A stretch of DNA of 20,399 nucleotides from a bacterium (GTDB taxonomy: Bacteria; Bacteroidota; Ignavibacteria; UBA10030): contig JAZDJN010000076.1 of the NCBI GenBank assembly GCA_043803945.1, positions 1 through 20,399 of the forward strand, given 5' to 3'. The notes below the pieces were generated by a model. The model made no database searches and had not been told where the DNA came from. It worked only from the letters and a program-made list of their open reading frames with translations. Position numbers and translations under genes: made by a program. Each line of letters opens with the position of its first letter. Position 1 is the stretch's first letter. This document shows, piece after piece, positions 3,101-19,865 of the stretch.

Positions 3101-3450
3101 AAGGCGGCGAGTTTCTCATTCAACTCCAGCCGCGCAAAGTTCATATCGATGCCCGGTTCGAATTCGAGATCGACCGATGTCTGGCCTTCATCGGATGTAG
3201 AGCTTACCTTGCGGACACCCTGGACGGTGTTGGCAATCTCTTCGATCGGTGCGGTAATAAATTGCTCCATGGTTTCCGGCGAGGTGTTGCCCCACGATGC
3301 AGCGATAGAAAGGCGCGGATATTCTTTTTCCGGTGCAAGTTCCAACGGCAGGTGCATAAACGCAAAGGTTCCACCGACGAGCAACGTGCCATAGAGCATG
3401 CTGACGGCAACAGGGCGATTGATGAGTTTTTCGAAGAAGTGGTGCGACAT
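166..3450 (-). CDS. RND efflux permease subunit (AcrB/AcrD/AcrF family), 1094 aa
   Basis: N-terminal RPVAV + TM1, 'E.FITAPIEE', TM4 'GRLVDDSIVV', TM11 'RLRPILMTTLTT', C-terminal 'GGLTSSMLLTLIVVPVVY'. About 40 aa palindrome-derived insertion after TM4. Confidence 0.95.
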   Translation of the reverse strand: MSHHFFEKLINRPVAVSMLYGTLLVGGTFAFMHLPLELAPEKEYPRLSIAASWGNTSPETMEQFITAPIEEIANTVQGVRKVSSTSDEGQTSVDLEFEPGIDMNFARLELNEKLAAFAESMPPGASPPIISRYVPRDLRDLQGFLSYSLSGGQSAQALSKYAEETIVPALLSLKGIANAQVIGGEKRELQVSLDPAKVVALGLNSDEITSRLREIEFNKPVGSVDEQGAKIIIAVRNSTTNLHELESQIVARLPNDVPVRLQDIATVRDGVAEVKSFYRINGKPSITLIINKEQGVNTLKLADAVFDKLAELQKDFPPGLKLIKESDKSEKLRSDLDNLYKEIIISLLCIGFVLTLFLRSLKASALVLSSIFFSLAGTFLIFWGLGIGLNLLTMAGLVLGFGRLVDDSIVVLDNIYRHSNLQEIKIPSPLRGREGWSSADSAITASPLPSPMRRGSMFAGQDEASSSNVSHAVHEIALPVIASTITTVGALLPLEFLPPDLKPYFLDFGIAVAVSLIMSLFVSFTLIPTVTYRIDLTPFRISPLEWIGDKGTKLYQAFLRFSLRRKKFVIALTIWIFGLPVWLMPDKIESQSLLSALYGYTFGSEYYLTAKPYINYILGGSSHLFFAKVSKGEIWNYVERTYLSVYVSFPRGTELERFDKIASDIERQALEYGSSIAKVTTRVAEGSAVIRIDVADSAAMTALPYELKNQLTLFAAQTGGASISVSGFGPGFYSGGEGGSMSFRVGILGYNYNRVREIAEEFKEQLSRNPRVQDVDIEGGWGRKTFELFVTVDRDAIARHGFTVAEVVRAILNFSRGSVTQSTLNIEGERVPYIVKFIGYRNYSVDDLQKSVIANGRGDQVRLGELIKLEERRVPSQITRENQQYIRNIAYEYKGPWQYGTQHLERTIKAMPLPSGYQFNQGYEFFRFREEQEISLILIALLAFTIVFMVTASLYESLLKPFIVILAIPLSLIGLFLAFYLMEVPFGRGGYAAVVLLIGIVVTNSVVLVDYLARHLHGENRSESVLIDAASTRLRPILMTTLTTIGGMLPLLLMGDKSSLWYQLSVGTIGGLTSSMLLTLIVVPVVYAKVYKAR
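2084..2172. repeat. Inverted pair of REP-like hairpins (second family) inserted in frame in the RND gene
   Basis: TCCCTCTCCT-CAT-AGGAGAGGGA (2085-2107) and CCTTCCCCT-AAG-AGGGGAAGG (2152-2172). They translate as PSPLRGREGW...SPLPSPMRRG. Confidence 0.8.
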
Positions 3451-3743: not shown

Positions 3744-4139
3744 TCAATTATTCAGATTCATTCTTTCCTTCTGTTCGATTTCATCATCCTTCAATTTAAA
3801 ATATTTATTAAAAAGAGGTCTCTTTTTCCAGAGGTATGTGAGAAGTAAACCATAGATAATCAACAGAACAATATAATATTCAATACCTGGGGGAGGGGGT
3901 ATAATCTTTAACCAGGTTAATAATAAATATGTGGGCACGGTTGGTAGATAGCTATAGAATAATACTGAACCAATATATTTGGATTTCCGATAGAATAGTA
4001 AGATGCAATATATAATCACGATGATACTATAGATGCTAAGCGGTGATATACTACCAGTAATTATCATGCGGTATATAGAATATGGTATTACTAATGTAGC
4101 GATAAACAATCCTTTTTTTAAAGAGGGCTTATCTCCCAT
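3744..4139 (-). CDS. Small integral membrane protein (~4 TM), 131 aa, function unknown
   Basis: Four hydrophobic stretches and a charged C-terminal tail. AAAGGA SD before the ATG; co-oriented with the operon; AT-rich. Confidence 0.7.
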   Translation of the reverse strand: MGDKPSLKKGLFIATLVIPYSIYRMIITGSISPLSIYSIIVIIYCILLFYRKSKYIGSVLFYSYLPTVPTYLLLTWLKIIPPPPGIEYYIVLLIIYGLLLTYLWKKRPLFNKYFKLKDDEIEQKERMNLNN

Positions 4140-4159: not shown

Positions 4160-4726
4160 TTAAGATTTTGAAAGCGTTTTTAATAGAAGTTCTCTAATTG
4201 AAGTTACATCTCTTTTTTCAAAGGGGAAAGCTTTCTTAACAAAACGGTCGGATGATGTATTAATCAGAATACAACTGTTTTTTATTCCAATTTTCGAACT
4301 CCCTTCTACAACATAACTAGTAAACGATATTGAATGTATTTCCTTCCAGCGCTTTGAAAATCTTTCCATTACAATGGGAGAACGGTTTTCTTTTTCGAAA
4401 AGAACAATTATTGCACTTGATGATTTTGAATTTTCAGACTCCAACAATTTACAAACAATAAAAAGTGCTTCCTTACAGCCACCGCAACCTAGGTCGCTCA
4501 TTTTCAGCCATATTATTACTTTAATTGTATCCAGACAATATCTTTGCCTTGAGTGGATTTCTATCGTTTGAATATCCGTGGCTGCGAGCACGTCAGATGA
4601 TTTCAATTCAGAAGCTTTTTGCAATGACCTTCCTTTCTCCTGTTGGCTCATGACAATGAATATACCTATACAAATGCCAGGTAATATTAAAAAGAATAGA
4701 ACAAATCTGAGTTTGGATAATATCAT
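4160..4726 (-). CDS. Membrane-anchored CxxC (thioredoxin-like) protein, 188 aa
   Basis: N-terminal TM; beta-strand KVIIWLKM followed by CGGC and a predicted helix. The Trx fold is inferred, not confirmed. Confidence 0.6.
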   Translation of the reverse strand: MILSKLRFVLFFLILPGICIGIFIVMSQQEKGRSLQKASELKSSDVLAATDIQTIEIHSRQRYCLDTIKVIIWLKMSDLGCGGCKEALFIVCKLLESENSKSSSAIIVLFEKENRSPIVMERFSKRWKEIHSISFTSYVVEGSSKIGIKNSCILINTSSDRFVKKAFPFEKRDVTSIRELLLKTLSKS

Positions 4727-4784: not shown

Positions 4785-4905
4785 CTTGTTCCCAAGCTCC
4801 GCTTTCTTTACAATCATCTCTCAAATCACCCATCTGTTTAGTTCGTCTCTAACAGCCGAAGCAGAGCTTCACATTCCACGTTCCCAAACAGAGCTTGGGA
4901 ACGAG
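4785..4905. repeat. REPIN-like doublet with collapsed left end
   Basis: CTTGTTCCCAAGCTCCGCTTT (4785-4805), spacer similar to those at 14221 and 16243, GAAGCAGAGCTTC (4858-4870), GTTCCCAAACAGAGCTTGGGAACGAG (4880-4905). Confidence 0.85.
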
Positions 4906-4925
4906 AAGTAAGAAGCTCAAGAAGA

Positions 4926-5987
4926 TTATTTTAGCTTTAATCGATAGTGCACAATCGTTGGATTTCGAAAATCTCCGTCTTCATCAGGCTTGGCTGATTT
5001 GAGAAGATAAAAAGAATCTTCGCTTACAGAATAATCCTCAAACTCTTCCGGAAGTTCTACTTCGGATGCTATCGGAGTACCATCTTTCAAATAGATATCC
5101 AGCCAGGAATATGGTTTATTGCCGTCGATTGGAGAATCCTGCTGGAGGAATACAAAGATAAATTTGTCTTTCAGCATGGATATATTTCTGATAGCTGATA
5201 TTTTCCTCAGATACTCTACAAAGCCTTTCCCACTATTCAGCATAACTGCATCAGGTTTTTTATAAGGGTGATAAGAGGAAGACGGCGCCCCAAAGATTAG
5301 AATCAATTCACCGCGTGCATTGAACTTTTTAATCGCATACTCCCATCTCTCAAGCTCATAGATATTATCCTCGCTATCCATGACAATCCCTCCGCCAAAC
5401 ATTCCCAGCCTTCTGTCATATTCTTTTGAAACAACTGCGAACATGCCCGTCATATTCCCAAGGCTGTCATATCTGGTTATCGTTAACTCTGAGGGCTGCG
5501 GATCGGTCCTCCAGAAAAAGAATTCAGACTTCGAGTTCTGAAGAAATTTGTGGCCATACGCATTCATTTTAATTGAACGCAGAAATGATCCATCTGGTAA
5601 GTATTGAATAATCTTCCGTTGATAGGAATCATAAAGAAGGATATTGCCGTGTCGATCAGAGGTAATATCCATCGCATTGATATACTCATTTGGACCTTTT
5701 CCATTACCCCCCAATATCCCCGCAAATCTTCCATCCTGATGAAACCGGAACACTTGTTGTTTTGAGGATGAGCTAAGAACAAGATATCCGCCGCCAGGCA
5801 CGATAGAGAATCCGCCAATGCGTCCGATCAAATGATCCTTGCCCGTGGAGAGCTGAATTTCATTTACCTTTTCAAAGGCTTCATTGAAGTGTTTCTTCGG
5901 GCCCGGTTGCTGATTATTTGGTGAGCACGATAGTATGAGACAGAGTATTATTGCCAGGAATACAGAAACGAATGAAGTGCTTTTCAT
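4926..5987 (-). CDS. 6-bladed beta-propeller (NHL/DUF5128-like) lipoprotein, 353 aa
   Basis: Lipobox ILSC; GGNGKGPNEY motif; repeated D..GNI.LYD / Y..DG.F blades; GAAGGG SD. Confidence 0.85.
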   Translation of the reverse strand: MKSTSFVSVFLAIILCLILSCSPNNQQPGPKKHFNEAFEKVNEIQLSTGKDHLIGRIGGFSIVPGGGYLVLSSSSKQQVFRFHQDGRFAGILGGNGKGPNEYINAMDITSDRHGNILLYDSYQRKIIQYLPDGSFLRSIKMNAYGHKFLQNSKSEFFFWRTDPQPSELTITRYDSLGNMTGMFAVVSKEYDRRLGMFGGGIVMDSEDNIYELERWEYAIKKFNARGELILIFGAPSSSYHPYKKPDAVMLNSGKGFVEYLRKISAIRNISMLKDKFIFVFLQQDSPIDGNKPYSWLDIYLKDGTPIASEVELPEEFEDYSVSEDSFYLLKSAKPDEDGDFRNPTIVHYRLKLK

Positions 5988-6127
5988 CGCTATCCCTTCT
6001 TATTCAAATATCAGGCTTGAAGATTTATATCTATGCATAATTTACTTGAAAGCGATTACAATTGTTTTCTTCACTAACGATTGTTTATCTACACTTGCAT
6101 ATTCTTTTCGGTGTGACTTGCATTTCT

Positions 6128-6175
6128 GAAGCAGAGCTTCGCTCTCTGCATTCCCAAACAGAGTTTGGGAACGAG
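6128..6175. repeat. Orphan right-type REP end
   Basis: GAAGCAGAGCTTC-N9-ATTCCCAAACAGAGTTTGGGAACGAG. No left partner seen in 5990-6127. Confidence 0.85.
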
Positions 6176-6184
6176 ATTCTTTAC

Positions 6185-6850
6185 CTTGTTCCCAAGCTCT
6201 GCTTGGGAACATTTTTTATAAAGCTCTGCTTACTTCTCTTCTGACAATCTCCAGTCCGTGGCAACTTCTACCAAACCTTTTTTACCCTCATAATCCCGAG
6301 CACTCGAATACCTCCAGTGCGATGGCTCGTCGACATATCCTCTCCGAACAGGATTGTAGTGAATGTACTCGATCTTTTGGATCAACATCGTTTCGTCAGA
6401 TAGCAATTGCGGGTGACTCCCCTCTTGCCACACCTGATACATACTCTCCTTTTTGTGAACACATTTTCTCAGCTGAAGCTCTTTCAACATACCAGCATGA
6501 CCCTTTTCTTCCAATCGATCAATAATCTTTCGGGCAGTAAAGGACTTAAATTCCTTCATTACTTTTGGTAATTTGTCTGCATGAGCAATCAGGTGGAAAT
6601 GATTTTCTAATAGTACATAAGCAAAAATTATAACTGAACGGTCGATGTGAATAAACTGCAACGAGTTTAGGATGATCTCTGCAAAACATGGTTGAGAAAA
6701 AAGCGGAAGCCAGTCCACAACCGTCATGGTCATAAAATAGGGTTGATGAGTTTCATAGAATCTGTATCGAGTGCGTGACATCGTGAACGTTCCTGAATAG
6801 TAGAAGCAGAGCTTCTATGTCTATGTTCCCAAACAGAGTTTGGGAACGAG
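6185..6850 (-). mobile_element. RAYT element 1 bounded by inverted REP ends
   Basis: Left end CTTGTTCCCAAGCTCTGCTTGGGAAC (6185-6210); right end GTTCCCAAACAGAGTTTGGGAACGAG (6825-6850); RAYT ORF between them. Confidence 0.85.
6230..6781 (-). CDS. rayT: REP-associated tyrosine transposase (Y1 HUH, IS200/TnpA-REP-like), 183 aa
   Basis: YFMTMT, HUH motif ENHFHLI, FKSFTA, WQEG, catalytic-Tyr motif YIHYNPV, W.YSS. Flanked by REPs. Confidence 0.92.
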   Translation of the reverse strand: MSRTRYRFYETHQPYFMTMTVVDWLPLFSQPCFAEIILNSLQFIHIDRSVIIFAYVLLENHFHLIAHADKLPKVMKEFKSFTARKIIDRLEEKGHAGMLKELQLRKCVHKKESMYQVWQEGSHPQLLSDETMLIQKIEYIHYNPVRRGYVDEPSHWRYSSARDYEGKKGLVEVATDWRLSEEK

Positions 6851-6896
6851 AAGTAAATTCTATTTTTCCACGAGATGCTCGAGTAACGTTGTAAAA

Positions 6897-8017
6897 TTAA
6901 ATGGTGTACTCAATCTTATATTTCTCAATCCAACTTGTGAGATACTTGCTTTGAATCAGGATATAGACACTCGAATCAGGTCCAATAACTGCACATTTAT
7001 ATTCATATCCATGATCATAGGGAAGCGTGGGGAGTGCGAGACGGGCAGTGTGTTCTCCGTTCCTGTTGTAATAATCGATAATTGACTCTTTACCTTCAGC
7101 ATCCGTAACAACAGCGAGCAGATAGTTACCCACCATAGCAATGCCAATCAATTTCCCAGAAGGGAGATTTTTCAGTTTTACACCAAAAGAAGTTTCTGAG
7201 AGAGATGACTGAAAATCGAAACGGCTTGTCGTGCTGAACGAAACGGGCATAGTAAATTCCTGCTCACTATGGCTCTTCAAATCAAGCATCATCATTCGAT
7301 AGGGATGTCGTTGACTGTATACTATTCCCGTTGATGATAGGGGCAGCATCCGTGTCATATTAGCTGTGTAACTGAACGTAGCCAGAGAAGGGCGTGCTCT
7401 TACATCAGAGTTCAGTATTTTATTAATAATACCCTCCTGTGGCTCTACAATTGTTCCATAGAATTCAATTGGCAGGGGTGAATGAATCTTGTACATATCT
7501 ATCGGTTTCGTGGTAAGTCTGAGAAAATATCTGCTCGTCAAAAAATAGAATCATTCAGGAGAACCGCATCGTCACAGTCATCCTTGAGAATCGAGCTCAT
7601 TATATATTTGCCTACTCTGGAAAAGAGGGTGATAATTTTACTTCTACTATCAAGAACCAAGAGTCTACTATCAGATTCTATTCGCAACCTGTTAATGTCT
7701 TGAAATTCACCCGGACCCTTTCCCTTTCGACCGAACTTTCTTATTTCCTCTCCAGTCTTCGCATCAAGAACCCGGACATAACATTCCGATCCATCGCCTA
7801 AGAAAAGCTCTTCGTTATTTGATACTGCTATATCTCGTATTTTATAATAGGAGGCTTGACTCTCACTCAGAGTATCAGGTGTACCAATAGTAAGAACATG
7901 CCTTATTTTTCCATGAAGGATCGTAACATCTTTTCGCTGTGAATATAACTGGCAATACAAAATTGTGACGATAATTAACACATATCGAATTATTCTCACC
8001 GATGTTCTCTTTTTCAT
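6897..8017 (-). pseudogene. Frameshifted 6-bladed beta-propeller exported protein (ORFs 7538-8017 + 6897-7541; 373 aa if joined)
   Basis: The N-part has a signal peptide and GRKGKGPGEF. The two parts align colinearly with 11784-12911. One extra T in the T6 run (7540-7545) fuses them. Confidence 0.8.
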
Positions 8018-8026
8018 TTCTTTTTC

Positions 8027-8164
8027 CTCGTTCCATAGCTCTGCTATGGAACGTTGCTTTGTAAGCTCCGCTTATATCATGGGAACCCACACATACTAGA
8101 TGTCCATCTCACTAACGAAGCAGAGCTTCACATTCTACGTTCCCAAACAGAGTTTGGGAACGAG
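8027..8164. repeat. REPIN-like doublet with variant left hairpin
   Basis: CTCGTTCCATAGCTCTGCTATGGAAC (8027-8052), TAAGCTCCGCTTA (8062-8074), GAAGCAGAGCTTC (8117-8129), right REP 8139-8164. Confidence 0.85.
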
Positions 8165-8169
8165 AGTCT

Positions 8170-8292
8170 CTCGTTTGTCTGCCGACTGTTATCTGCCTTC
8201 TGTCCTCTTTTACTTGCTCCTTTATACTTAATACTTTCTACTCTCCCCGTCTCCCCCTCACCCACTCACGCTCTTACTCTCTCACCCTCTCG
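8170..8292. repeat. Degenerate 7-/8-mer pyrimidine-rich tandem repeats
   Basis: TGTCTGC CGACTGT TATCTGC CTTCTGT; TACTTAA TACTTTC TACTCTC; CCCCGTCT CCCCCTCA CCCACTCA. Confidence 0.55.
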
Positions 8293-11200
8293 AACCCCTC
8301 CCAATCGCCCACTTATCAATGTAGGTGTAGACAATCGGAATGAACACGATTGTGAACAGCGTGGAGGCTATCAATCCGCCGACAAGCGGAATGGTCAATG
8401 CACGTACCAATTCGGAGCCGGTGCCGAACTCGAATATGAGTGGAATCACACCGAGCACTGTCGTCACCGTTGTCATCAAAATCGGGCGTAGGCGTTTCTG
8501 CATTCCCTCCTTTACCGCATCGAACAGCGCCACACCGTCGCGGCGCATCGAAGTGATAATATCTACCGCAATCACCGCATCGTTATCCACCGCACCGATC
8601 ATAATGACAATACCGATCAGCGACATCACATTGTAATTCTGCCCGGCAAGAACCATTGCACCGATCGCTCCGATAAAAGCCAGCGGACTGGAGAGGAGAA
8701 TGACAAAGGGATAAAGTATCGATTCATACTCCGCTGCTAGGATCATATAGACAAGGAAAAGCGACAGCAGGATGACAATAAAGAGGCTGCGGAATGATTC
8801 TTGAATTTCTTCATTCTCGCCGCCCACCGATATACGGTACCCCGCGGGGAATGTAAACTCTGCCGCCCGTCTCTCGATCTCCTCGACAACACTCCCTACC
8901 GACCTGCCGCTGACATTCGCCGTCATAAGAACGGCACGCTGCTGGTTCTCCCGCCAGATTTCCGAATACCCTTCTGTTCTTTTCCACTCGATTAGCTCAC
9001 GGATGGGAATGGAAGTCTCTCCAACGGTGATCGATGCAGCAAGCAGGTCTTCCATTGTTCTTTGCTGTTCAATCACCGGCTGGACACGGACGGTAACCTT
9101 CCTGTCGAAATCGCTCAGGAATGTCGCCTCCTTCCCCCGAACGTGCTGTGCAATTGCCTGTGCAACTGTTTGAACCGAGAGTCCGTACCGAGCCGCCCGA
9201 TCGCGGTCGATGACAATGCGGTATTCTGGACTTCCCTTTTGCGCTCCTGTTTGTAAATCTACCAGCGCCGGAATTTCCCTGAGCTTCGGTGCAAACTCAT
9301 CGGCAATCCGAAACGAGGTTGCCGGGTCTTTACCGAGGATTCGGATCTTGATATCATTTTGTTCGGGCTGCAGAATCTGCTCGAACGTTGTGCCCCGTTT
9401 CTTCACGTTGAACGTCACACCGCTCAACGAGGTTTGCATCCGTGCAAGTGTTGCACGCACTTCAGTAATAACATTGTCGGTCTCCGCCTGGTTGCTTACT
9501 TTAACTTCAAGATCGGCACGCTCCGCCGCAGCGTTCGAGACTGTCCAGTAATTCTGCTCGTCGGTTATTCCCGCCGAAGTATAGACACCTTTGACAGAGT
9601 GCAGCTTCAGAATGACCTGTTCAATCTGCAATGCAAAACTTGAAGTCCCCTCAAGCGTCGAACCCTTCGGCATCATTACCTGAACGCTGAAACGGCTCTG
9701 ATCGATATCGGGTGCAGGCTCGGTTTTTATTGTGAGCGAAACTAGGATGGATAATATGAACAATCCTACCGTTCCGACAACAACGGTGAACCGATGCTGT
9801 AATGCCCAATTGAGATACCTTGTTAATCCTGCATTTGAACTACTACGCACACCATCGACGATCCGGTGAAAAGGTGGAGAAATTGTGGTGAACAGTTGGT
9901 CAAAGAGATTCAGAAGATTGAAGTAGAGCCACACACTCAGTGCGAGCAGTGCCCGTATTGGAACGGTGATCCAGAACCAGATACGGCCAGGCATACTTCG
10001 CTGCAACGCGACAGCCAATTTCAAGTATTGCCGGACAGAATAGTCCTTTCGCTTCAACACGATCTGTCGCGAAACAAGCATCGGCACCAATGTGACTGCA
10101 ACGACAAGCGACACAAGCAGCGAGACTGTCATTGTAATGCCCATATCGAGAAAAAGCTGTGAGGCAACACCTTCCACAAAGATGATGGGGAGGAAGATGG
10201 CAACGTTGGTCAATGTGGATGCCGTAACGGCGAGATTGATTTCCCTGCTTCCTTCAATTGCCGATTCTATTAAAGACATGCCGCGCTCACGAAGACGCGT
10301 AACATTTTCGATGACTACAATGGCATTGTCGCCTAACATCCCGATACCGATAGCCAAGCCGGTAAGCGAAATAATATTGAGATTGATACGGATGAAATAC
10401 ATAACAATGAATGTTGCCAGAATCGAGATCGGCATACAGAGGCCGATGATGACCGGGTAGCGCACACCTTTGAGGAAGAAAAAGAGAACAAGAAATGCAA
10501 GAAATGCGCCGATGACGATTGCCTGCTCTACATCGTCGATGGACTTCGAGATGAACTCAGCCTGATCGGTGATGACATCGAGCTTAAGGTTTGGATATTC
10601 ATCGCGTAGCTGCTGAAGAACGGTGTGGACGCGCTCAGACACCTGCACGGTATTGGTGCCTGCTTCTTTTCGTACCTGGAGTGCGATGATTTCACTACCG
10701 TTGTAGCGGGTCAATCCGGCTCTCTCTTTAAATGTATCTGAGACACTTCCGATATCGCTCACACGGATTGTCCGGCCGTTGCTTATTTTCGCTACGATAA
10801 CATTCCGGATTTCATCCACACGTTTGAACTCGCCGACAGTGCGCAGGGAATATCTGAAGAGTCCGTATTTGATCGTGCCACCGGGAAGATTCAGGTTTGC
10901 CGCTGCAAGAGCCGCGGAGACCTGATCCAGTGTGAGTCCATGCGCCTGCAGTTTACGCATATCGATCTCGACATGTATTTCCCGTTCAAGTCCGCCCAAA
11001 ACAGCCGCCTGTGCAACGCCCTCTACCTGCTCGATGCGCCGCTTTATCAGCGCTCTTGCTGTTTCTTTCAGCTCAACAAGCTGTGAATATTTTGTTGATT
11101 CGTTTTCTTTTTTCTCTCCAATGCTCCCTCTCTCTCTGTTTTCCTCTCTCCCCGCCTGCGTCCCCTCAAGCTGGGAGGGAGCCCCGCCTGCCGATATGGT

Positions 11201-11713
11201 ACCGCCGAGGCGGGCAGGTCCAGCTCCCGACCTTAATGCAATCTCTTCTCTCATCTCTCTTCTATCTTCTCTCTGCTTTTCCGAAACCGCTACCGTCATC
11301 ACCGGTTCCGTCGAAGGATCGATCTTGAGGATTGTTGGCCTGCCTGCCTCACGCGGCAATCCAGCACGAAGCTGATCCAGCTTTTCACGCACTTCGAGCA
11401 TAGCAAAATCCATGTTGGTGCCCCAATAAAACTCAGCCGTTACTACCGAGATACCTTCGCGAGAAGCAGAGGAGGTTCGTTTGACACCTGTTACGGTTCC
11501 GAGAGCGGACTCGATCGGCTGCGTCAATGTGTTTTCAACTTCTTCCGGAGAGACATTCGGATAGGTTGTCTGCACGGTAAGTTTGGGGATCTTAATGGGC
11601 GGAAGAAAATCGATAGCAAGGTTTTTGAAGGCGATCATGCCCAGCGCAACGACACCGATCGTGAACATGATGATGGTAACCGGGCGCTGGATGGAAGTTG
11701 ATGAGAGAGACAT
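8282..11713 (-). CDS. RND efflux permease subunit (AcrB family), ~1143 aa from the ATG at 11713
   Basis: MSLSSTSIQRPV start typical of the family; SPEEVENTLTQPIE; TM4 GMLGDNAIVV; RLRPILMTT. About 60 aa insertion at ~11085-11280. Confidence 0.95.
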   Translation of the reverse strand: MSLSSTSIQRPVTIIMFTIGVVALGMIAFKNLAIDFLPPIKIPKLTVQTTYPNVSPEEVENTLTQPIESALGTVTGVKRTSSASREGISVVTAEFYWGTNMDFAMLEVREKLDQLRAGLPREAGRPTILKIDPSTEPVMTVAVSEKQREDRREMREEIALRSGAGPARLGGTISAGGAPSQLEGTQAGREENRERGSIGEKKENESTKYSQLVELKETARALIKRRIEQVEGVAQAAVLGGLEREIHVEIDMRKLQAHGLTLDQVSAALAAANLNLPGGTIKYGLFRYSLRTVGEFKRVDEIRNVIVAKISNGRTIRVSDIGSVSDTFKERAGLTRYNGSEIIALQVRKEAGTNTVQVSERVHTVLQQLRDEYPNLKLDVITDQAEFISKSIDDVEQAIVIGAFLAFLVLFFFLKGVRYPVIIGLCMPISILATFIVMYFIRINLNIISLTGLAIGIGMLGDNAIVVIENVTRLRERGMSLIESAIEGSREINLAVTASTLTNVAIFLPIIFVEGVASQLFLDMGITMTVSLLVSLVVAVTLVPMLVSRQIVLKRKDYSVRQYLKLAVALQRSMPGRIWFWITVPIRALLALSVWLYFNLLNLFDQLFTTISPPFHRIVDGVRSSSNAGLTRYLNWALQHRFTVVVGTVGLFILSILVSLTIKTEPAPDIDQSRFSVQVMMPKGSTLEGTSSFALQIEQVILKLHSVKGVYTSAGITDEQNYWTVSNAAAERADLEVKVSNQAETDNVITEVRATLARMQTSLSGVTFNVKKRGTTFEQILQPEQNDIKIRILGKDPATSFRIADEFAPKLREIPALVDLQTGAQKGSPEYRIVIDRDRAARYGLSVQTVAQAIAQHVRGKEATFLSDFDRKVTVRVQPVIEQQRTMEDLLAASITVGETSIPIRELIEWKRTEGYSEIWRENQQRAVLMTANVSGRSVGSVVEEIERRAAEFTFPAGYRISVGGENEEIQESFRSLFIVILLSLFLVYMILAAEYESILYPFVILLSSPLAFIGAIGAMVLAGQNYNVMSLIGIVIMIGAVDNDAVIAVDIITSMRRDGVALFDAVKEGMQKRLRPILMTTVTTVLGVIPLIFEFGTGSELVRALTIPLVGGLIASTLFTIVFIPIVYTYIDKWAIGRGSRG
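11151..11233. repeat. Nested palindromic elements in frame within the RND gene
   Basis: Host CTGGGAGGGAGC (11171-11182)/TCCAGCTCCCGACCT (11219-11233) is interrupted by a 36-nt CCCGCCTGC...GGGCAGG insert. Another CCCGCCTGC-starting fragment sits at 11151-11170. Confidence 0.7.
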
Positions 11714-11783
11714 TTGTAATTGCGTATTTAATAAGGGGTAATAAGTTATTTCAAAATTCTTCTCACTTATATAAATAGCCACA

Positions 11784-12911
11784 TCATAATTGAATAGAGA
11801 ATCTCTCTACCCAGTTCAAATGAAGTTCATTGCTCACCAGCAACAACAATTCTTGGTTTCCTTTGAATGCAGCGCCAAAAACTTTTAGCCCTTTTTTGAG
11901 TGGTGGAATTATCAATCTTTTCGAAAAAACGCCAGAGAGGCTGTAGCAATCCAAATAATTACTCTGCCCATCGATACTTATTATCGGAACAAGCAAATGC
12001 GTCCATCCATTTTTTATTCCTAATGCACTCCCAGAATTATTCATCTGCATAGAACTTCCCCTGTCAATGATCTGTATGTCTAAACCACTTTGTGTATCAA
12101 AACCAACGCTGGGATTTACCTGTTCAATCGTTTTTGTTTTTAAATCATACCTGATCAAGATATATGGATTTCTCTGGGAATAGAGTACGCTTTGGTTATC
12201 GGCAAGTAACACCACGTTTGTCATTCCAAAAGAAGATAACATACTTCGAGCCGAATTTTTTAGAAGGTTATTATTAAATAGTTTTAGCAACCCCTCTTTT
12301 GGTTCAATAATTTTCCCAAATTCATCAAGAATTCTATTATTCTTTAGTGAAATAATTCTTAACGGTTTAAATTGTTGATCCAACAGGAAACTACTTGTTA
12401 TGAGCTGAGTACCGTTGATAAAATCTATATCGTCCGTAAGTCTTTCCAAAGAGATTGTGCGAATGAGTTTTCCATTCTCTGAGAATATTGTACAACGCCT
12501 CAATGTGTTATCTATCACGGATAACTGTTTGTCGTGAAAGATTTTCATTGGACCTAATGTTTTAAACTCTCCCGGGCCACTGCCGATTTTACCTATTCGA
12601 AATAGTTCACTTCCCGTTTTTAGCGAAAACACTCTTATACTTCCTGCCTGTTGATCGGCCAAATAGAGCTTGCCATCCTCTGAACATTCAATACTTCTAA
12701 TACCATAAAAATATATGTCATTGGTCGTATCGGGGAATCCAAACGATGAAATCTTGGTGATTTTTCCTTTGATTGCTTTCACATTTAATTGACAAAGCAC
12801 TGTCGTAGATGTAAATAGAATGATAGCAAACACAAAACTGTATAATATTCGGATACACCAATTATTGATTATCAAGATATTCAATCCTTCTGGAATTCGT
12901 TTTATCTTCAC
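11784..12911 (-). CDS. 6-bladed beta-propeller exported protein, ~375 aa (start uncertain)
   Basis: Signal-like hydrophobic segment ending TTVLCQ; DGKLYLAD; GKIGSGPGEF. Paralog of 6897-8017 (SQRNPY/SQRHPY). Confidence 0.85.
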   Translation of the reverse strand: MKIKRIPEGLNILIINNWCIRILYSFVFAIILFTSTTVLCQLNVKAIKGKITKISSFGFPDTTNDIYFYGIRSIECSEDGKLYLADQQAGSIRVFSLKTGSELFRIGKIGSGPGEFKTLGPMKIFHDKQLSVIDNTLRRCTIFSENGKLIRTISLERLTDDIDFINGTQLITSSFLLDQQFKPLRIISLKNNRILDEFGKIIEPKEGLLKLFNNNLLKNSARSMLSSFGMTNVVLLADNQSVLYSQRNPYILIRYDLKTKTIEQVNPSVGFDTQSGLDIQIIDRGSSMQMNNSGSALGIKNGWTHLLVPIISIDGQSNYLDCYSLSGVFSKRLIIPPLKKGLKVFGAAFKGNQELLLLVSNELHLNWVERFSIQL

Positions 12912-12946
12912 TCGTCGTTACCAAAGGAGAGCGCAATGTCTTCTCC

Positions 12947-14083
12947 TCATCTCTTCATCCTGTAGATTTGGATTCTTGCATTGTGTTCATTTTGTTTTAT
13001 AAGAGTCTCTTCAATCTTTCTGCCATTGATATTTAATCCGGCGGGAAGAAAAACGTATAGCACATCATTAAGAACAAATGAATGTGATACCAGATATGGT
13101 ATAACGATACCGAGCATAATTGCTGCCCCATTTAACGAATAGATATCCATAAAATGTTTTCTAGATGATATCGTCTCGGGAGTCATTCTAAATAGAAGGA
13201 TAAGGTCGTTGTTGAGAAGCTGTATTCTGCCTACGGTGGAATTGGATAGCTCATACTTCCTCGCATCTCTCATATTTCTTTGTATTTCCGCTGTAGGTAT
13301 TTTTTCTGAGGCCTTCCAGTCAGAAGGAATATCACCGAATGAATCCAGAAGCTTACCATTTTCGTTAAACACTTGAATTCGATATTCATAGGGAGAGGCA
13401 TGATAAATTAATCCGGTTCTATCGATTACTATGCCGCCACCCTCTCGTTGAAATGCTGGTGTAAATGACTTTGGATGAGGAGCAAATCTTACCAGTTCCT
13501 TTCCCTCAGGATCATATTTCACCACAGTTCCTTCCGTTGAACCTTTTCTGGTTACTATGCCAATTGCATACATGTAAATATTCTTCGCTGCATCGAATTG
13601 GAACTGTGTGAAGGGATTACCTAGCATGAAGGTGGCATTGTCGTACTCGCCGGTCGAGGTATAACGAATTAATTTCCCCTCTGTGCTGAAAATATAGATT
13701 TTACCATCCCGGTCGAACTGTGTATCATAAGCTTCAATGTATTCCCCGGGACCTCTTCCGTTACTTCCAATTTCGCGTACAAAACTGCCACTGCTGTCGA
13801 GCAAGTAGCAGCGTCGAGTTGTATAACGATCGTAAATCAAAAATCTTCCATCAGTACCTACAATGATCTGCGGATGTTGACCAAGCAGGAAGCCTTTCCG
13901 TTCCGATAAGATAATTTGTCGTTCCAATGCAAAGATCTCATTAAAATCATTTGCATCCGTGAAGAGAACAGGGTAAGTGTCTTTGAATGTTATTGGAATA
14001 TCTCTTTTGGGAGGTTTCGCACAACCAGAGATAATTAACACGAAGAGAGTAACATAAAGTAGTTGTACAACGAATTGTTTCAT
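12947..14083 (-). CDS. 6-bladed beta-propeller lipoprotein, 378 aa
   Basis: Lipobox ISGC; GSNGRGPGEY; DRDGKIYI and EYRIQVFNENGKLL blades; AAGGAG upstream. Confidence 0.88.
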   Translation of the reverse strand: MKQFVVQLLYVTLFVLIISGCAKPPKRDIPITFKDTYPVLFTDANDFNEIFALERQIILSERKGFLLGQHPQIIVGTDGRFLIYDRYTTRRCYLLDSSGSFVREIGSNGRGPGEYIEAYDTQFDRDGKIYIFSTEGKLIRYTSTGEYDNATFMLGNPFTQFQFDAAKNIYMYAIGIVTRKGSTEGTVVKYDPEGKELVRFAPHPKSFTPAFQREGGGIVIDRTGLIYHASPYEYRIQVFNENGKLLDSFGDIPSDWKASEKIPTAEIQRNMRDARKYELSNSTVGRIQLLNNDLILLFRMTPETISSRKHFMDIYSLNGAAIMLGIVIPYLVSHSFVLNDVLYVFLPAGLNINGRKIEETLIKQNEHNARIQIYRMKR

Positions 14084-14163
14084 TGCTTCATCATCTCCTT
14101 GGAGATTTTAATCAATGAAGAATACGAACAAGTACGGCTTTCTTGACAAGCTACAATCTGTTT

Positions 14164-14214
14164 AGGTCGGGAGCGGACTTGTCCCAACGTTTTTTGTCGG
14201 GAGCTCCCTCCCAG
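14164..14214. repeat. Third-family REP-like hairpin with a nested 25-nt palindrome
   Basis: AGGTCGGGAGCGGA + CTTGTCCCAACGTTTTTTGTCGGGA (14178-14202) + GCTCCCTCCCAG. The host matches the reverse complement of 11171-11233. Confidence 0.7.
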
Positions 14215-14220
14215 ATCAAC

Positions 14221-14369
14221 CTCGTTCCCAAGCTCCGCTTGGGAATATGTGTTTTTTTAAAGCTCTGCTTTCTTCACAATCATCTTTCAAGTTGCCCATC
14301 TACTTGGTTAATCTCATCACTGAAGCAGAGCTTCTCGTTTTGCGTTCCCAAACAGAGTTTGGGAACGAG
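14221..14369. repeat. REPIN-like doublet (149 bp)
   Basis: Left REP 14221-14245, AAAGCTCTGCTTT, spacer, GAAGCAGAGCTTC 14322-14334, right REP 14344-14369. Near-identical to 16243-16394. Confidence 0.92.
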
Positions 14370-14426
14370 AAGAACTTCTGGAGGTAAGCGAGTCTATAGA
14401 CATCCCAGCGATGGGAAAGTGATGCT

Positions 14427-15458
14427 TCACCTTAATGTATACCTCCCAATCTTGGGATTCGCCTCCGGATAATCCTCCAGCTTGACGTAGATGCTATTGC
14501 CGTGACATCCAAGGACATCCTTTTCAAACGGAATTGACTTTACAAGCAAGTTACCATCCGTGTCATAGAAATCGAGTTGATTATCGTACTGGATGAACAC
14601 AATCCCCTTATCGAGAACAAGTGGTCCTTGCATCAGCACCGGACTTCTACGGCCTTCAGATTCTTCATAGATAATCTTCCCTTCACTAAATTCTTTTATG
14701 AGCTTGCCCTCTGAATCATACTTCCGGATTCTGTAAAAAAGCGGATTTATTTCGTAGATGAAGCCCGATGTATCGATGACCATGCCGTTGTATCCAGCCG
14801 AGAAGTTGAGGTCGCTAATTTCTTCTGGGATGAGAGCAAACGATATCATATGTTTTCCAGTAGAAGAAAATTTATGGATCGTTGGAAATATGTTGGGCTT
14901 TTTTGATCTTATGAAGCTCGGTTGAAGCATTCCGTCATAAAGGAAGATTTCATCGTTTTTATTGATATGAATGAAATACTCAGTTCTATCGGGGAACATC
15001 ATCGATTTATAGTTGTAATTCGAGGTATATACCAAAACTTTTCGACCCATATAATCATTAAGGAATATCTCTCCCTCTCTGTTTATCGCAACACTAAGGG
15101 GAGTTTGATATTCCCCCGGTCCATGTCCCTGGCCTCCCAAATCACTAAGAAACTTACCTGTGGTGTCAGCAATGAAGACGGTTTTCGATTGCCATCCATC
15201 GCAGATGATTATATTACCTTGCTGATCAATATCGAAGTCGGTTATCAACGAGATGAAATGATCTTTGCCGGATGATAGTTGTACCTCTTTCTCCAGCACA
15301 GTAAAGTCAGCGAAGGACTTTGCTCCTTTAATAAGATCTAAGGATGCAGGTGGCGGGGGAGCAGCCGTTGTCTTGGTCTTTGACTTCTTACAACCCGACA
15401 ATGAAAAAATTAGGAAGACCAGTACCGTTGCGACCACAGAGCTACTATGATATGCCAT
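14427..15458 (-). CDS. 6-bladed beta-propeller lipoprotein, 343 aa
   Basis: Lipobox LSGC; Pro linker; QLSSGKDH shared with 4926-5987 (QLSTGKDH); GGQGHGPGEY. Confidence 0.88.
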   Translation of the reverse strand: MAYHSSSVVATVLVFLIFSLSGCKKSKTKTTAAPPPPASLDLIKGAKSFADFTVLEKEVQLSSGKDHFISLITDFDIDQQGNIIICDGWQSKTVFIADTTGKFLSDLGGQGHGPGEYQTPLSVAINREGEIFLNDYMGRKVLVYTSNYNYKSMMFPDRTEYFIHINKNDEIFLYDGMLQPSFIRSKKPNIFPTIHKFSSTGKHMISFALIPEEISDLNFSAGYNGMVIDTSGFIYEINPLFYRIRKYDSEGKLIKEFSEGKIIYEESEGRRSPVLMQGPLVLDKGIVFIQYDNQLDFYDTDGNLLVKSIPFEKDVLGCHGNSIYVKLEDYPEANPKIGRYTLR

Positions 15459-15462
15459 AGAT

Positions 15463-15494
15463 CTTGTTCCTCGATCTCAGAGTTTGGGAGTGAG
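15463..15494. repeat. Degenerate right-type REP
   Basis: ...GTTCCTCGATCTCAGAGTTTGGGAGTGAG resembles GTTCCCAAACAGAGTTTGGGAACGAG, and is followed by AAG like several intact copies. Confidence 0.55.
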
Positions 15495-15553
15495 AAGATT
15501 CTAAAAAATGATTTGGGATCATGCATTACAGCTTCTATGATACCTCTCATCAT

Positions 15554-16153
15554 TCAACCTCGTTCCCAAGCTCCGCTTGGGAACGTGTGTTTTTTAAAAG
15601 CTCTGCTTTCTTCTGGCAACCTCCAATCCGTGGCAACTTCTACCAAACCATTATTACCCTCATAATCACGAGCACTCGAATACCTCCAGTGCCGCGGCTC
15701 ATCAACATATCCTCTCCAAACCGGATTGTAATGAATATAGTCGATCTTTTGAGCCATCATCCTCTCGCTGGAGATCATTTGCGGGTGGCTTCCCTCCTGC
15801 CATACTTGATACATACTCTCCTTTTTGTGAGAAGATTTCCTCACATGAAGCTCACTCAATAATGCAGCAGGACCGCTTGCTTCTAATTGATCAATAATCT
15901 TTCGTGCCGTATAGGATTTGAATTCTTTCATTACCTTCGGTAACTCTTCCGCATGAGCAATCACATGGGAATGGTTTTCTAATAGTACGTAAGCATAGAG
16001 TATAATTCTACGTTCTGTATGAATAAACCGAAGTGAGCTTATGAATATCTCTGCAAAACTCGGTTGAGAAAAGAGTGGAAGCCAGTCCACGACCGTCATG
16101 GTCATAAAATAGGGCTGATGAGTTTCAAAAAATTTATATCGTGTGCGGGACAT
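15554..16153 (-). CDS. rayT: REP-associated tyrosine transposase copy 2, 199 aa from the ATG at 16153
   Basis: About 77% aa identity to copy 1 by hand count. ENHSHVI and YIHYNPV motifs. Reads through the left REP to a stop at 15554. Confidence 0.9.
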   Translation of the reverse strand: MSRTRYKFFETHQPYFMTMTVVDWLPLFSQPSFAEIFISSLRFIHTERRIILYAYVLLENHSHVIAHAEELPKVMKEFKSYTARKIIDQLEASGPAALLSELHVRKSSHKKESMYQVWQEGSHPQMISSERMMAQKIDYIHYNPVWRGYVDEPRHWRYSSARDYEGNNGLVEVATDWRLPEESRAFKKHTFPSGAWERG

Positions 16154-16222
16154 AGCAAACCTTCTTGTATAGTTAAAGCAGGGCTTCACACTTTGCGTTC
16201 CCAAACAGAGTTTGGGAACGAG
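15559..16222 (-). mobile_element. RAYT element 2 bounded by inverted REP ends
   Basis: Left REP 15559-15584 and right REP 16197-16222; same layout and length (~665 bp) as 6185-6850. Confidence 0.85.
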
Positions 16223-16242
16223 ACCTTATCGCCTCATTCGAC

Positions 16243-16394
16243 CTCGTTCCCAAGCTCCGCTTGGGAATGTGTGTGTGTTTTAAAGCTCTGCTTTCTTCAC
16301 AATCATTTTTCAAGCTGCCCATCTACCTGGTTAATCTTTCATCATTGAAGCAGAGCTTCTCGTCCTGCGTTCCCAAACAGAGTTTGGGAACGAG
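16243..16394. repeat. REPIN-like doublet (152 bp)
   Basis: Left REP 16243-16267, right REP 16369-16394; spacer nearly identical to that of 14221-14369. Confidence 0.92.
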
Positions 16395-16398
16395 AAGG

Positions 16399-16643
16399 GT
16401 ATAGGATTTGAATTCTTTCATTACCTTCGGTAACTCTTCCGCATGAGCAATCAAATGGGAATGATCTTCTAATAGTACGTAAGCATAGAGTGTAACTCTA
16501 CGGTCTGTGTGAATAAACCGAAGTGAGCTTATGAATATTTCTGCAAAACTTGGTTGAGAAAAGAGTGGAAGCCAGTCCACGACCGTCATGGTCATAAAAT
16601 AGGGCTGATGAGTTTCAAATATTTTATATCGTGTGCGGGACAT
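16399..16643 (-). pseudogene. rayT: 3'-truncated RAYT copy 3
   Basis: Near-copy of 15909-16153 (6 aa differences over ~82 by hand count). Homology ends after FKSYT, 4 nt from the REPIN end, so the catalytic YIHYNPV is missing. Confidence 0.9.
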
Positions 16644-16664
16644 AGCAAACCTTCCTACATGGTT

Positions 16665-16712
16665 GAAGCAGAGCTTCACACTTTGCGTTCCCAAACAGAG
16701 TTTGGGAACGAG
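16665..16712. repeat. Right-type REP end upstream of RAYT copy 3
   Basis: GAAGCAGAGCTTC-N9-GTTCCCAAACAGAGTTTGGGAACGAG. Confidence 0.92.
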
Positions 16713-16736: not shown

Positions 16737-18047
16737 TCATTTCACTCTACCCACAACTCTAACCTTCGCGTCATGCGCAAGCGTGTAATGGCCCCCGATC
16801 AATACCGTGTCTCCTGGCACCACCTCTTTGTATTGACCACGGAGAATTTCTATAAACTCTTCGTTCTCTTCGCCAACATCGACATAGTTCCACTTTGCCA
16901 GGTCGCCTTCTTTGTAGAAGATTAGATTGCGCTGGTCGCGGACCAGAAGCGCCGCCTTGGGTACAAGCAACCGGTTTGTAAAAATATCCGTCTCGATTCG
17001 AACAGTAGCAAACATCCCAGGACGAAGCTGCGGGAGAAACCCGGTTGAAATTGCTGATTGGCGAGTGACGATTGACGGTTGAAAAGATTTAGTGCCATCC
17101 TTTAATTCTATTGTGACCTTTACGGTTTTTGTTTTGGTGTCGACGATTGGATTAATGTAGATGATCGCACCAAAAAATGTTTTCGCCGGGTATGCATTGA
17201 CAATCACTTCTGCCCTGCGGCCGAGATGCAGTTTTCCAATCTCACTCTCCAGTACTTCCACATCTACCAGCAGGCTGGAGAGATCAACAAGCTTCAACAC
17301 CGTTCTGCCCATCGAAATCTGCATGCCGGGTGTGATATCGCAGTCGGCAATGTAGCCGGTGTAAGGAGCCTTGATTTCCGTGCTTTCGAGATCGAACTTT
17401 GCGCGTTCAAATGCTTCACGCGCAGAGCTGAGACCCGTACGGCTTGCCTGGACATCGTTCCGATGAGAGTGGAGAATGGCGATATCGGCTTCGTAGTTCC
17501 TTTTCTTCCGGGCATATTCAATTTCATTCACCTGAAGCCCTCGCCAGAGTTTTTCAAGCTCTTCCAAATTCTTTTCCGCTTCTTTTAGCTGCTGTGATTG
17601 TTTTACGCTATCAACATCTTCGGCGTAGGGAGAATAAACCTGTTGACGGTATTCAATTTGCGCCGCTAATAGTGCAGAAGCCGCTCGGTCATAGGAGATC
17701 CGTTTTTCCCGTTCATCGAGTTTCATAAGCAGATCGCCCTGCCGGACGAATGAGCCGTTGTGAACTTCGACCTGCAGCGCTTCGCCGCTGGTTCGGGCAA
17801 CAATTTCTGCCTCGCGTTTCGCACGCAGTGTGCCTGTTGCCGTAAGCCATTTAATGAGGTTCCCCCGATGGGCCAATGCGGCATCGACCGGAAATATAAC
17901 TTCCGTCGTTGACTGGGTGGATTTTGTCGGCGAGCCTTCGGTTTGTTGAACATCTGTTCCGTCGGAAGATGAAGATGGTTTCAGGAGATACCACAGAAGA
18001 ATTCCGATTGGAATGAACGCAAGAATGAGGTAATAGGATGTTTTCAT
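16737..18047 (-). CDS. RND efflux periplasmic adaptor (membrane fusion protein), ~436 aa from the ATG at 18047
   Basis: MKTSYY + TM anchor; lipoyl-like 'G.FVRQGDLLMKLD' and 'IKAPYTG'; coiled hairpin; LRPGMFA; LLVPKAAL. Confidence 0.93.
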   Translation of the reverse strand: MKTSYYLILAFIPIGILLWYLLKPSSSSDGTDVQQTEGSPTKSTQSTTEVIFPVDAALAHRGNLIKWLTATGTLRAKREAEIVARTSGEALQVEVHNGSFVRQGDLLMKLDEREKRISYDRAASALLAAQIEYRQQVYSPYAEDVDSVKQSQQLKEAEKNLEELEKLWRGLQVNEIEYARKKRNYEADIAILHSHRNDVQASRTGLSSAREAFERAKFDLESTEIKAPYTGYIADCDITPGMQISMGRTVLKLVDLSSLLVDVEVLESEIGKLHLGRRAEVIVNAYPAKTFFGAIIYINPIVDTKTKTVKVTIELKDGTKSFQPSIVTRQSAISTGFLPQLRPGMFATVRIETDIFTNRLLVPKAALLVRDQRNLIFYKEGDLAKWNYVDVGEENEEFIEILRGQYKEVVPGDTVLIGGHYTLAHDAKVRVVGRVK

Positions 18048-19485: not shown

Positions 19486-19550
19486 CGATGGAGTAATTGA
19501 TAAACAATTACTATCAAATAACAATATCCAATCATTGGAGGGTAAATCAA

Positions 19551-19865
19551 ATGAAGACGCAACAATTAATCAGGATCGTTTCATCATTTTTGATTGTACC
19601 GTTAATATTCATCATTTTAGGTTTATCGAGTGCGTCTGGGGAAACACAACGTTGGACAGTTTATTGTTATTGGGGTGGCAGTGAACCCCTTAAATGCGAG
19701 CACGCCAATTGCATAGACGGACAATCTTGGGATCGTGATGGGATATGCGGAACATCACACACATACGCAACAGCTGCGAGGTGCCAATTTCCCGTAAATG
19801 ATAAATGTAATTGTACACCAGATGCCGATAGCCCTCTTTGTACACAGGATCATTGGCCAAATTAG
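19551..19865 (+). CDS. Small secreted cysteine-rich protein, 104 aa (8 Cys)
   Basis: GGAGG at 19537-19541 before the ATG at 19551; signal peptide MKTQQ...LSSASG; all 8 Cys fall in the ~74 aa mature part. Confidence 0.75.
   Translation: MKTQQLIRIVSSFLIVPLIFIILGLSSASGETQRWTVYCYWGGSEPLKCEHANCIDGQSWDRDGICGTSHTYATAARCQFPVNDKCNCTPDADSPLCTQDHWPN

Follow-up and report, generated by a model that had tools for sequence, protein, structure and literature searches.

Gene Content and Repeat Anatomy of the Locus

The window analyzed here, a 20,399-nucleotide (nt) stretch that makes up an entire contig (JAZDJN010000076.1; C76 below), comes from the 5.54-Mb, 118-contig genome of a bacterium of the Ignavibacteria (G000; other G-numbers stand for genomes, L-numbers for loci, and C-numbers for contigs of G000). 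It carries a minus-strand resistance-nodulation-division (RND) efflux operon, identified in Pfam and NCBIfam scans, in which a membrane fusion protein (MFP) gene is followed by RND2 and then by RND1. Genes for REP-associated tyrosine transposases (RAYTs) and their repetitive extragenic palindromes (REPs) occupy the variable part of this operon, and their relation to the neighboring genes is our subject. Inserted among the pump genes are five DUF5128 propeller genes (one of them split), a CxxC thioredoxin-like open reading frame (ORF), and a small membrane-protein ORF; a sixth propeller gene and a Cys-rich peptide gene lie upstream of the operon in divergent orientation. GC content is 0.49–0.51 for the pump genes versus 0.32–0.43 for the inserted genes.

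Each REP unit is about 48 nt long and has a CTCG foot, a 9–11-bp hairpin, and an inner AAGCAGAGCTT motif. REP arms are of two types: a left arm, a RAYT, and a right arm make up a REPtron, and a left arm, a spacer, and a right arm make up a REPIN (REP doublet forming hairpin), with the feet pointing outward. Four such doublets are present in the window, and the three full ones fold with z values of −7.5 to −7.9. The order on the plus strand (Table 1; propellers are named by their first coordinate) is REPIN A, prop4926, a single REP, REPtron 1, the split propeller, REPIN D, and RND2, followed by prop11784, prop12947, REPIN B, prop14427, a REP remnant, REPtron 2, REPIN C, the half gene RAYT3, a REP, and MFP.

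Table 1. Features of the window, in order of position
Feature	Position	Strand	Basis
RND permease 1 (RND1; AcrB family), final gene of the operon	166–3450	−	Pfam PF00873, E 2e-164
Small membrane-protein ORF, GC 0.32	3744–4139	−	No family match (Pfam, NCBIfam)
CxxC (CGGC) thioredoxin-like protein, cassette type	4160–4726	−	No Pfam match; predicted-structure lead
REPIN A: collapsed left REP, spacer, right REP	4785–4905		REP alignment
DUF5128 six-bladed propeller, lipoprotein-like signal, LSTGKDH	4926–5987	−	PF17170, E 1.5e-20
Single REP; 9 bp separate it from the RAYT1 element	6128–6175		REP search
REPtron 1: REP 6185–6231, RAYT1 6230–6781, REP 6803–6850	6185–6850	−	NF047646, above cut-off
Propeller paralogous to 11784–12911; ORFs 7538–8017 and 6897–7541, frameshift at a T run	6897–8017	−	Alignment
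REPIN D, spacer unlike those of A, B, and C	8027–8164		REP search, alignment, folding
RND permease 2 (RND2)	8282–11782	−	PF00873, E 3e-221
DUF5128 propeller, REP at neither end	11784–12911	−	Pfam
DUF5128 propeller, lipoprotein-like signal; shares its subfamily with 4926 and 14427	12947–14083	−	Pfam, tree
Palindromic repeat, second family, also elsewhere in G000	14165–14215		blastn, 88–98% to copies on C82, C87, C27
REPIN B	14221–14369		REP search, alignment, folding
DUF5128 propeller, lipoprotein-like signal, LSSGKDH	14427–15458	−	Pfam
Collapsed REP remnant	15463–15497		Repeat family D11; alignment
REPtron 2: REP 15559–15608, RAYT2 15554–16153 (runs into REP), REP 16176–16222	15554–16222	−	NF047646, above cut-off
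REPIN C, 93% identical to REPIN B	16243–16394		Alignment
RAYT3 5′ half (16398–16643) and upstream REP (16665–16712)	16398–16712	−	Truncated 3–4 nt outside the REPIN C foot
RND periplasmic adaptor (MFP), opening gene of the operon	16737–18047	−	TIGR01730, above cut-off; alignment
Divergent propeller (18445–19485) and small secreted-looking Cys-rich peptide ORF (19497–19865), without REP of the window type	18445–19865	+	

A first-pass annotation of the window had described a module of REPIN, propeller, REP, and RAYT that occurs twice (modules 1 and 2), plus a third copy with only a REPIN and the 5′ half of a RAYT (module C). This anatomy was confirmed, with both full RAYTs above the family cut-off and the order repeated. 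The layout is less regular than described: the left REP at 4785 is collapsed, and the propeller-to-RAYT interval is non-homologous between the modules, holding a full REP (6128–6175) in module 1 and a remnant (15463–15497) in module 2. The elements listed at that stage are all real; the list omitted REPIN D and the second-family repeat at 14165–14215. Four of the six propeller genes (12947, 11784, the split 7538 + 6897, and the divergent 18445) lie outside both RAYT-REPIN frames.

Relationships of the RAYTs and of the Propellers

RAYT1 and RAYT2 score 102.1 and 101.4 bits against NCBIfam model NF047646 (cut-off 80). RAYT1 carries the motifs NHFH and YIHYNP. RAYT2 has YIHYNP together with NHSH, in which a polar middle residue gives H-S-H instead of histidine-hydrophobic-histidine (HuH), and its frame, with no stop ahead of the REP, enters the REP. 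The family profile, the HuH and YxxxNP motifs, and inverted REP flanks that recur elsewhere in the genome, in many cases as doublets, all mark these genes as RAYTs. IS200/IS605 TnpA (class 1) was ruled out, given YIHYNP instead of YxxxQ and a PF01797 score below the cut-off, and a phmmer search of RAYT1 against PDB returned no matches at E 0.01. The two RAYTs are 77.5% identical in amino acids (aa), as against the ~77% first reported, and 81.9% in nt, with dS of 0.69 and dN/dS of 0.18, a ratio by which they are judged to be under purifying selection. Among 78 RAYTs they are sisters (FastTree support 0.999), so their duplication is local to the G000 lineage. RAYT3 is 95.1% identical in nt to RAYT2 (dS 0.11), in agreement with the third copy described earlier. 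With sister copies at 82% and a part-copy at 95%, the window departs from the single-copy rule for RAYTs. The spacers of the REPINs at 4785 and 14221 are indeed homologous, as claimed (73.6% identity; shuffles, mean 48, maximum 60); that of REPIN D is 41–43% identical to the others and unrelated. Further RAYT-like genes, about 28–34% identical to RAYT1, are found on C62, C85, and C72.

The propellers within the two frames are, by contrast, only weakly alike. An earlier hand estimate had put their likeness at about a third of residues; we measured 26.4% aa identity over 288 residues between prop4926 and prop14427. Each is 26–28% identical to prop12947, so they are no closer to one another, and at the DNA level their identity (46.9%) equals that of shuffled sequences (mean 47.4%). 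The nearest relatives of prop14427 are two outside proteins, P0002 and P0003 (37%; clade support 99/98), and on a tree of 13 rows picked from the nearest sequences the approximately unbiased (AU) test rejects prop4926 and prop14427 as sisters (p-AU 0.002). Judged by these comparisons, duplication of the RAYTs did not include the two propeller genes. In G146 and G161, the nearest homologues of prop11784 (32–38%) likewise stand ahead of RND2 or of a 5′ fragment of it. The frameshift at the T run (7538–7545) in the split propeller could reflect a pseudogene, a slippage switch, or an assembly error.

Cassette Variation in Related Operons

An MFP orthologue (E ≤ 1e-60) is present in 28 of the 277 genomes of the order, G000 included. 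We compared the operon loci of 24 genomes (G035 and 23 of the 27 further genomes with the orthologue; 484.5 kb, several loci being cut by contig ends). The propeller variation that the first-pass annotation proposed to look for among relatives is there, with at least one propeller in 18 of the 24 genomes and at least two in 12, but the REPs are not: these loci gave no RAYT match and no REP-profile match at 14 bits. A bare MFP-RND-RND operon occurs in G203, G204, G206, G207, and G208, and the G166 locus stops at MFP. The cassettes of relatives mix Cys-rich peptide ORFs, propellers, and thioredoxin-like ORFs (peptide and thioredoxin-like calls made by eye) and also hold MauE, AraC, and O-antigen-ligase genes (Pfam on examples). 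We conclude that this type of array and its variability do not need RAYT.

Extra MFP 3′ or RND2 5′ fragments at cassette borders in 6 of the 24 genomes (G003, G106, G159, G161, G162, and G164) suggest that the arrays of relatives grow by recombination on pump-gene ends; such border fragments were not found in the window itself. Arrays L029/L030, L031, L033, L036, and L046 are punctuated either by duplicated MFP 3′ ends, accompanied by the AraC gene, or by duplicated RND2 5′ starts; L046 has as many as three.

A metagenome scan with the MFP alignment yielded 40 loci, at least four of which duplicate GTDB loci already counted and are not independent; none contains a RAYT or a REP, and no full-length MFP match there exceeds 51% identity. 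A GTDB search for related loci with the MFP alone gave no confirmed locus. G003 and G017 possess both the operon and a RAYT, on different contigs. REPs of the window type are absent from the other propellers of G000, including one that lies within a peptide-MauE-AraC cassette on C12. The divergent propeller of the window and its 10-Cys secreted-looking peptide (18445–19865) form a cassette type found in relatives, again without REP, and the propellers inside the operon have no adjoining peptide genes.

REP Density and Polarity

The REP profile matches 13 times in the 20.4-kb window versus 18 times in the other 5.52 Mb of G000, a density about 195-fold higher; the profile was derived from window copies and is biased toward them, and two of the 18 outside matches are weak. 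Assembly may drop repeats, a REP-like match being present at 1 of 236 contig ends. The first-pass annotation had named passive colonization of gaps at similar density genome-wide as the outcome that would undo its proposal; this was rejected by the enrichment. Elsewhere in G000, REP doublets adjoin ordinary genes. When REPIN B DNA was compared with 401 genomes of the class (two candidates scored per genome), six others matched, through the REP arm only and never through the spacer. The second palindromic family (14165–14215) abuts REPIN B and has near-full copies on C82, C87, and C27 and many part-matches on C101.

Every REP doublet, RAYT, and cargo gene in the window shares one polarity, as was first noticed. 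Elsewhere in G000 there are eight doublet or near-doublet sites, of which six could be scored, by eye (C38 lies between convergent genes and C66 has two like arms; C26 was scored by its 533-aa gene). Five of the six place the same arm upstream relative to transcription as the window does, C18 being opposite. This REP family keeps one polarity across the genome, at ordinary sites too, and polarity was rejected as evidence for a cassette system. A consensus-only scan of the window finds five left arms that resemble terminators on the antisense strand and no such REP hairpin on the sense strand. Selection against polar insertions, or the strand-specific insertion that PMC3333891 describes for IS608-type enzymes, could account for the polarity; no cassette mechanism is required.

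The RAYT Family in Other Genomes

RAYTs of the window type occur at 74 GTDB loci, with full-length identity up to about 55%, scattered over Planctomycetota, Chloroflexota, Desulfobacterota, Cyanobacteria, Balneolaceae, and Ignavibacteria, and in 31 of the 277 genomes of the order (E ≤ 1e-40). The same hairpin type flanks most of the 52 best RAYT loci. There were no propeller-profile matches near the 74 GTDB loci (flanks up to 6 kb) or at 22 same-order loci (20 of 35 other matches plus two found separately). Dense REP clusters beside a cognate RAYT, without propeller cargo, are normal for the CTCG-foot clade, with 32 profile matches in L166 and, by a hairpin rule, 18 REPs in L051, 15 in L093, and 11 in L081. 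RAYT part-copies joined at REPs are also found in L051, where a 5′ part-copy lies upstream of the intact gene, and in L074.

The 32 REPs of L166 (3482–7465) form tandem arrays on both sides of the RAYT and one gene beyond. In L081 (1575–10899; Thermodesulfobacteriota), a RAYT of the window clade, the 11 REPs, a PIN-domain gene, and two ORFs lie between the MFP and RND genes of another efflux operon; in L203, from the same genome, a bare REPtron sits in a similar slot.

Recombination at REP Ends

The RAYT3 half is joined to REPIN C 3–4 nt outside the foot. REP ends do recombine in the window, as the first-pass annotation had proposed, but the module C event kept no propeller. Either of two histories would give module C: tandem copying of module 2 (that of REPIN B) with a loss of 1.5 kb anchored at a REP, or invasion of a REPtron 2 copy by a REPIN B copy. 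On C26 of G000 (47129–49549; L183), a 35-bp REP-arm direct repeat bounds a 2.3-kb insert that encodes a HEPN protein as well as a secreted-type protein (weak Por_Secre_tail match). Directly next to the right-hand REP-arm copy lies a repeat of about 100 bp from a third family.

Possibly the best case for carriage of cargo by RAYT ends is a 3,851-bp insert in G614 (Balneolaceae; L200, about 7730–11580), which has CTAG-footed REP ends and lies inside a host tandem repeat next to a tRNA-like sequence. Its order is REP, RAYT, REPs, an immunity-like ORF, an Rhs fragment, a RAYT 3′ fragment, and REP, and its position in an intact repeat copy (GCC|TCTT) fits the C|T rule of TnpA-REP. The unit belongs to a different RAYT type (32% identity to RAYT1). 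All four Rhs-core matches in G614 adjoin RAYT genes or fragments, at three dispersed loci (among L074 and L198–L200), and in six other members of the Balneolaceae (121 genomes searched) 1 of 12 Rhs loci has a RAYT within 1.5 kb. RAYT ends thus do seem to carry cargo in at least one genome besides G000, as a lineage-specific trait. Ton-Hoang et al. (PMC3333891) propose that bacterial interspersed mosaic element (BIME) units can sequester flanking genes and note captured tnpA-REP fragments; the first-pass premise that RAYTs spread REPINs, not cargo, was thus too strong.

Other Features of the Window

Compared with RND1 and with the Pfam model, RND2 has a low-complexity insertion of ~65 residues that follows residue 170 (about 10900–11300). 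For the 4160–4726 protein, ESM Atlas structure rows resemble Redoxin/TlpA models (TM 0.62–0.72), a lead from predicted models. A promoter scan of the window found 36 candidates versus 30.8 expected and was uninformative.

Interpretation

The history that we consider probable is local copying by a RAYT, of its own gene and its REPINs, into a cassette region that was variable already. Across the order, genes for propellers, thioredoxin-like proteins, Cys-rich peptides, MauE, and AraC come and go in the slots of the host operon (MFP, RND2, RND1), with no REPs needed. Cassettes were likely gained horizontally, by recombination on short pump-gene copies, given the duplicated MFP 3′ ends or RND2 5′ starts that border cassettes in several relatives. 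A RAYT of the patchy CTCG-foot clade, with its REP type, would have entered G000, presumably by horizontal transfer. E. coli TnpA-REP is known to nick single-stranded DNA near its REPs and join the ends, and this RAYT may do the same. There were at least two local copyings of the REP-RAYT-REP unit, an old one (dS 0.69) and a recent one (dS 0.11), and REP doublets spread into neighboring non-coding gaps. The only orientation seen, with the terminator-like arm facing antisense, would spare the operon transcript, through selection or strand-specific insertion. The variable part being mostly propeller genes plus large gaps, filling those gaps would produce the appearance of a module. The RAYT looks more like a guest in a region that varies anyway than like part of an integron-like device that swaps genes.

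Several observations weigh against this history. The REP enrichment coincides exactly with the variable part of the operon. The spacer family of REPINs A and B is found at none of the eight doublet sites elsewhere in G000 (by eye), and the divergence of these REPINs (74%) roughly equals that of RAYT1 and RAYT2 (82%), which joint movement of REPIN and RAYT in a single frame would predict. The LSxGKDH motif is common only to the two framed propellers: among 32 propellers of the window and its relatives and nine database matches (one being the query), L[ST]xGKD occurs in prop4926 and prop14427 alone. Most third codon positions of the motif differ between the two, so the motif is old. A wider clade of prop4926, prop14427, and P0002/P0003 is compatible with the data (p-AU 0.44). 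The best full-length MFP orthologue among relatives is 53% identical, so that the relatives compared belong to other genera, and an active role of RAYT and REP may be confined to the lineage of G000. Finally, G614 does contain a REP-bounded RAYT-plus-Rhs insert.

Such observations would fit an exchange of propellers within a conserved frame of REPIN and REPtron, whether the RAYT cuts and transfers strands at REP ends or RecA recombines the 150-bp and 650-bp arms, with module C as an emptied frame. Also in keeping with it are the same order occurring twice with a shared spacer family diverged nearly as far as the RAYTs, the motif shared by the framed propellers, the module C junction at a REP end, the REP-half direct repeat around the C26 insert, the 3,851-bp unit of G614, and the gene capture proposed for BIMEs in PMC3333891. 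We nevertheless regard this exchange as unlikely. It is unnecessary for cassette variation, since relatives vary without RAYT or REP; no RAYT-propeller link exists at the 74 and 22 other loci; the interval from cargo to RAYT is non-homologous between the modules; and four propellers lie outside any frame. Module C lost half its RAYT too, which leaves no clean empty site, and it is obtainable without cargo by copying REPtron 2 and REPIN B. The first-pass proposal that RAYT and REPs supply or shuffle propeller genes was not upheld by these comparisons (0 of 74 and 0 of 22 RAYT loci with a propeller), and its integron-like role was not supported, given the absence of an integrase and of a site per gene (below) and the rejected sister pairing of the propellers.

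Module C (16243–16712) could also be a chimera made in assembly, by joining two strain haplotypes via REPs, with an unreal junction, but there is little to recommend this idea. The assembly has 118 contigs and module C is a 93–95% tandem near-copy, as a chimera would allow; however, the junction from REPIN to mid-RAYT is not at a shared repeat, and similar part-copies are joined at REPs in L051 and L074. Least credible of all is in-place duplication of the whole REPIN-propeller-RAYT module followed by fast propeller divergence under diversifying selection: the gene order, the shared motif, and a common propeller subfamily (a 96/96 clade with prop12947 and two outside homologues) agree with it, but it is largely refuted by propeller DNA at shuffle level next to RAYTs 82% identical, by prop14427 being closer to outside proteins (37%) than to prop4926 (26–27%), and by the AU test.

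Local copying of a RAYT into a variable region, the history preferred here, implies that RAYT-plus-array layouts can arise by colonization, the same array varying without RAYT. More speculatively, some RAYT clades may not be fully domesticated, REP-RAYT-REP and REPINs serving as composite single-strand element ends that exchange kilobase cargo in polymorphic arrays (propeller lipoproteins in the window, Rhs toxin-immunity-like cassettes at three G614 loci). We doubt this; if true, it would be an HuH-driven, integrase-free cassette system and a new route to gene-cassette shuffling. Whether RAYTs move, or carry host genes, is an open question in the literature ("no evidence of tnpAREP mobility," PMC8266576; also PMC5581495). 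The locus combines local RAYT self-copying at two ages with a REP-end junction, in a widespread CTCG-foot clade, and supplies defined substrates for a cleavage assay; together with the G614 insert, it makes the question testable.

Comparison with Known Systems

As described in PMC3333891, PMC5581495, and PMC6006769, REPtron (RAYT-REPIN) systems such as E. coli TnpA-REP resemble the window in the Y1 HuH type, YxxxNP, inverted REP flanks, nearby REP doublets with scattered intergenic sites, and purifying selection. The window differs in having two and a half RAYT copies at one locus, one a 95% part-copy, and in a foot of CTCG, not GTAG, with ~31 REP-profile matches, 13 of them in the window. According to PMC5581495, RAYTs are mostly single-copy, 7.7% being recently duplicated and 2% by the strictest definition.

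Quentin subclass 2.6 and Bertels Group 5 (Bacteroidetes, "atypical" hairpins) share with the window RAYTs a length of ~180 aa (about 179 in the subclass), WQ, YIHxNP, and non-GTAG hairpins; the window has NH[FS]H and YIHYNP versus NH[LIV]H and YIH[QN]NP, a difference of one residue each. The window RAYT is only 32% identical to the RAYT whose CTAG-footed REP resembles subclass 2.6 rows. The window REP type was not found in Quentin Table S1 (PMC6006769; 30 of 68 "2.6" entries compared), and two REP words gave one unrelated match in the supplements. A literature text search with four 12-nt REP words returned unrelated matches only. The window clade lies near subclass 2.6 and is probably its sister, and it is apparently uncatalogued in the literature searched.

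In integrons, co-oriented genes have hairpin-forming repeats between them that are processed as single strands. The window likewise has co-oriented genes parted by hairpin-forming repeats, but its repeats are inverted doublets, and the array type exists without them. No tyrosine recombinase or integron integrase was found among the 15 ORFs of the window scanned against Pfam and NCBIfam. REPs are absent between 12947 and 11784, 11784 and RND2, 4160 and 3744, and 3744 and RND1, so there is not one site per cassette gene.

Orphan modules of Rhs and contact-dependent inhibition (CDI) systems form polymorphic cassette arrays that grow by homology at conserved gene ends and carry toxin-immunity cargo. 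The operons of relatives are similar in that duplicated MFP 3′ ends and RND2 5′ starts border their cassettes, but differ in cargo, which consists of propeller, thioredoxin-like, and Cys-rich peptide genes rather than toxin-immunity pairs. Judged by titles and abstract openings, the literature searched, on RAYTs with cassettes, integrons, or Rhs, describes no RAYT-driven cassette system; DUF5128/NVEALA propellers with RND receive incidental mentions only.

The prochlorosin tnpA-REP system (bioRxiv 10.1101/2020.03.09.984088) resembles the window in its full and truncated RAYTs interspersed among variable paralogues, for which RAYT was the proposed diversifier. That link is clade-wide, with 32% of 136 tnpA-REP copies within 200 bp of procA, whereas the RAYT-propeller link of the window is found in one genome only; a later note by the prochlorosin authors sees no strong evidence for or against causation. 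This preprint is the closest precedent for an integron-like role of RAYT.

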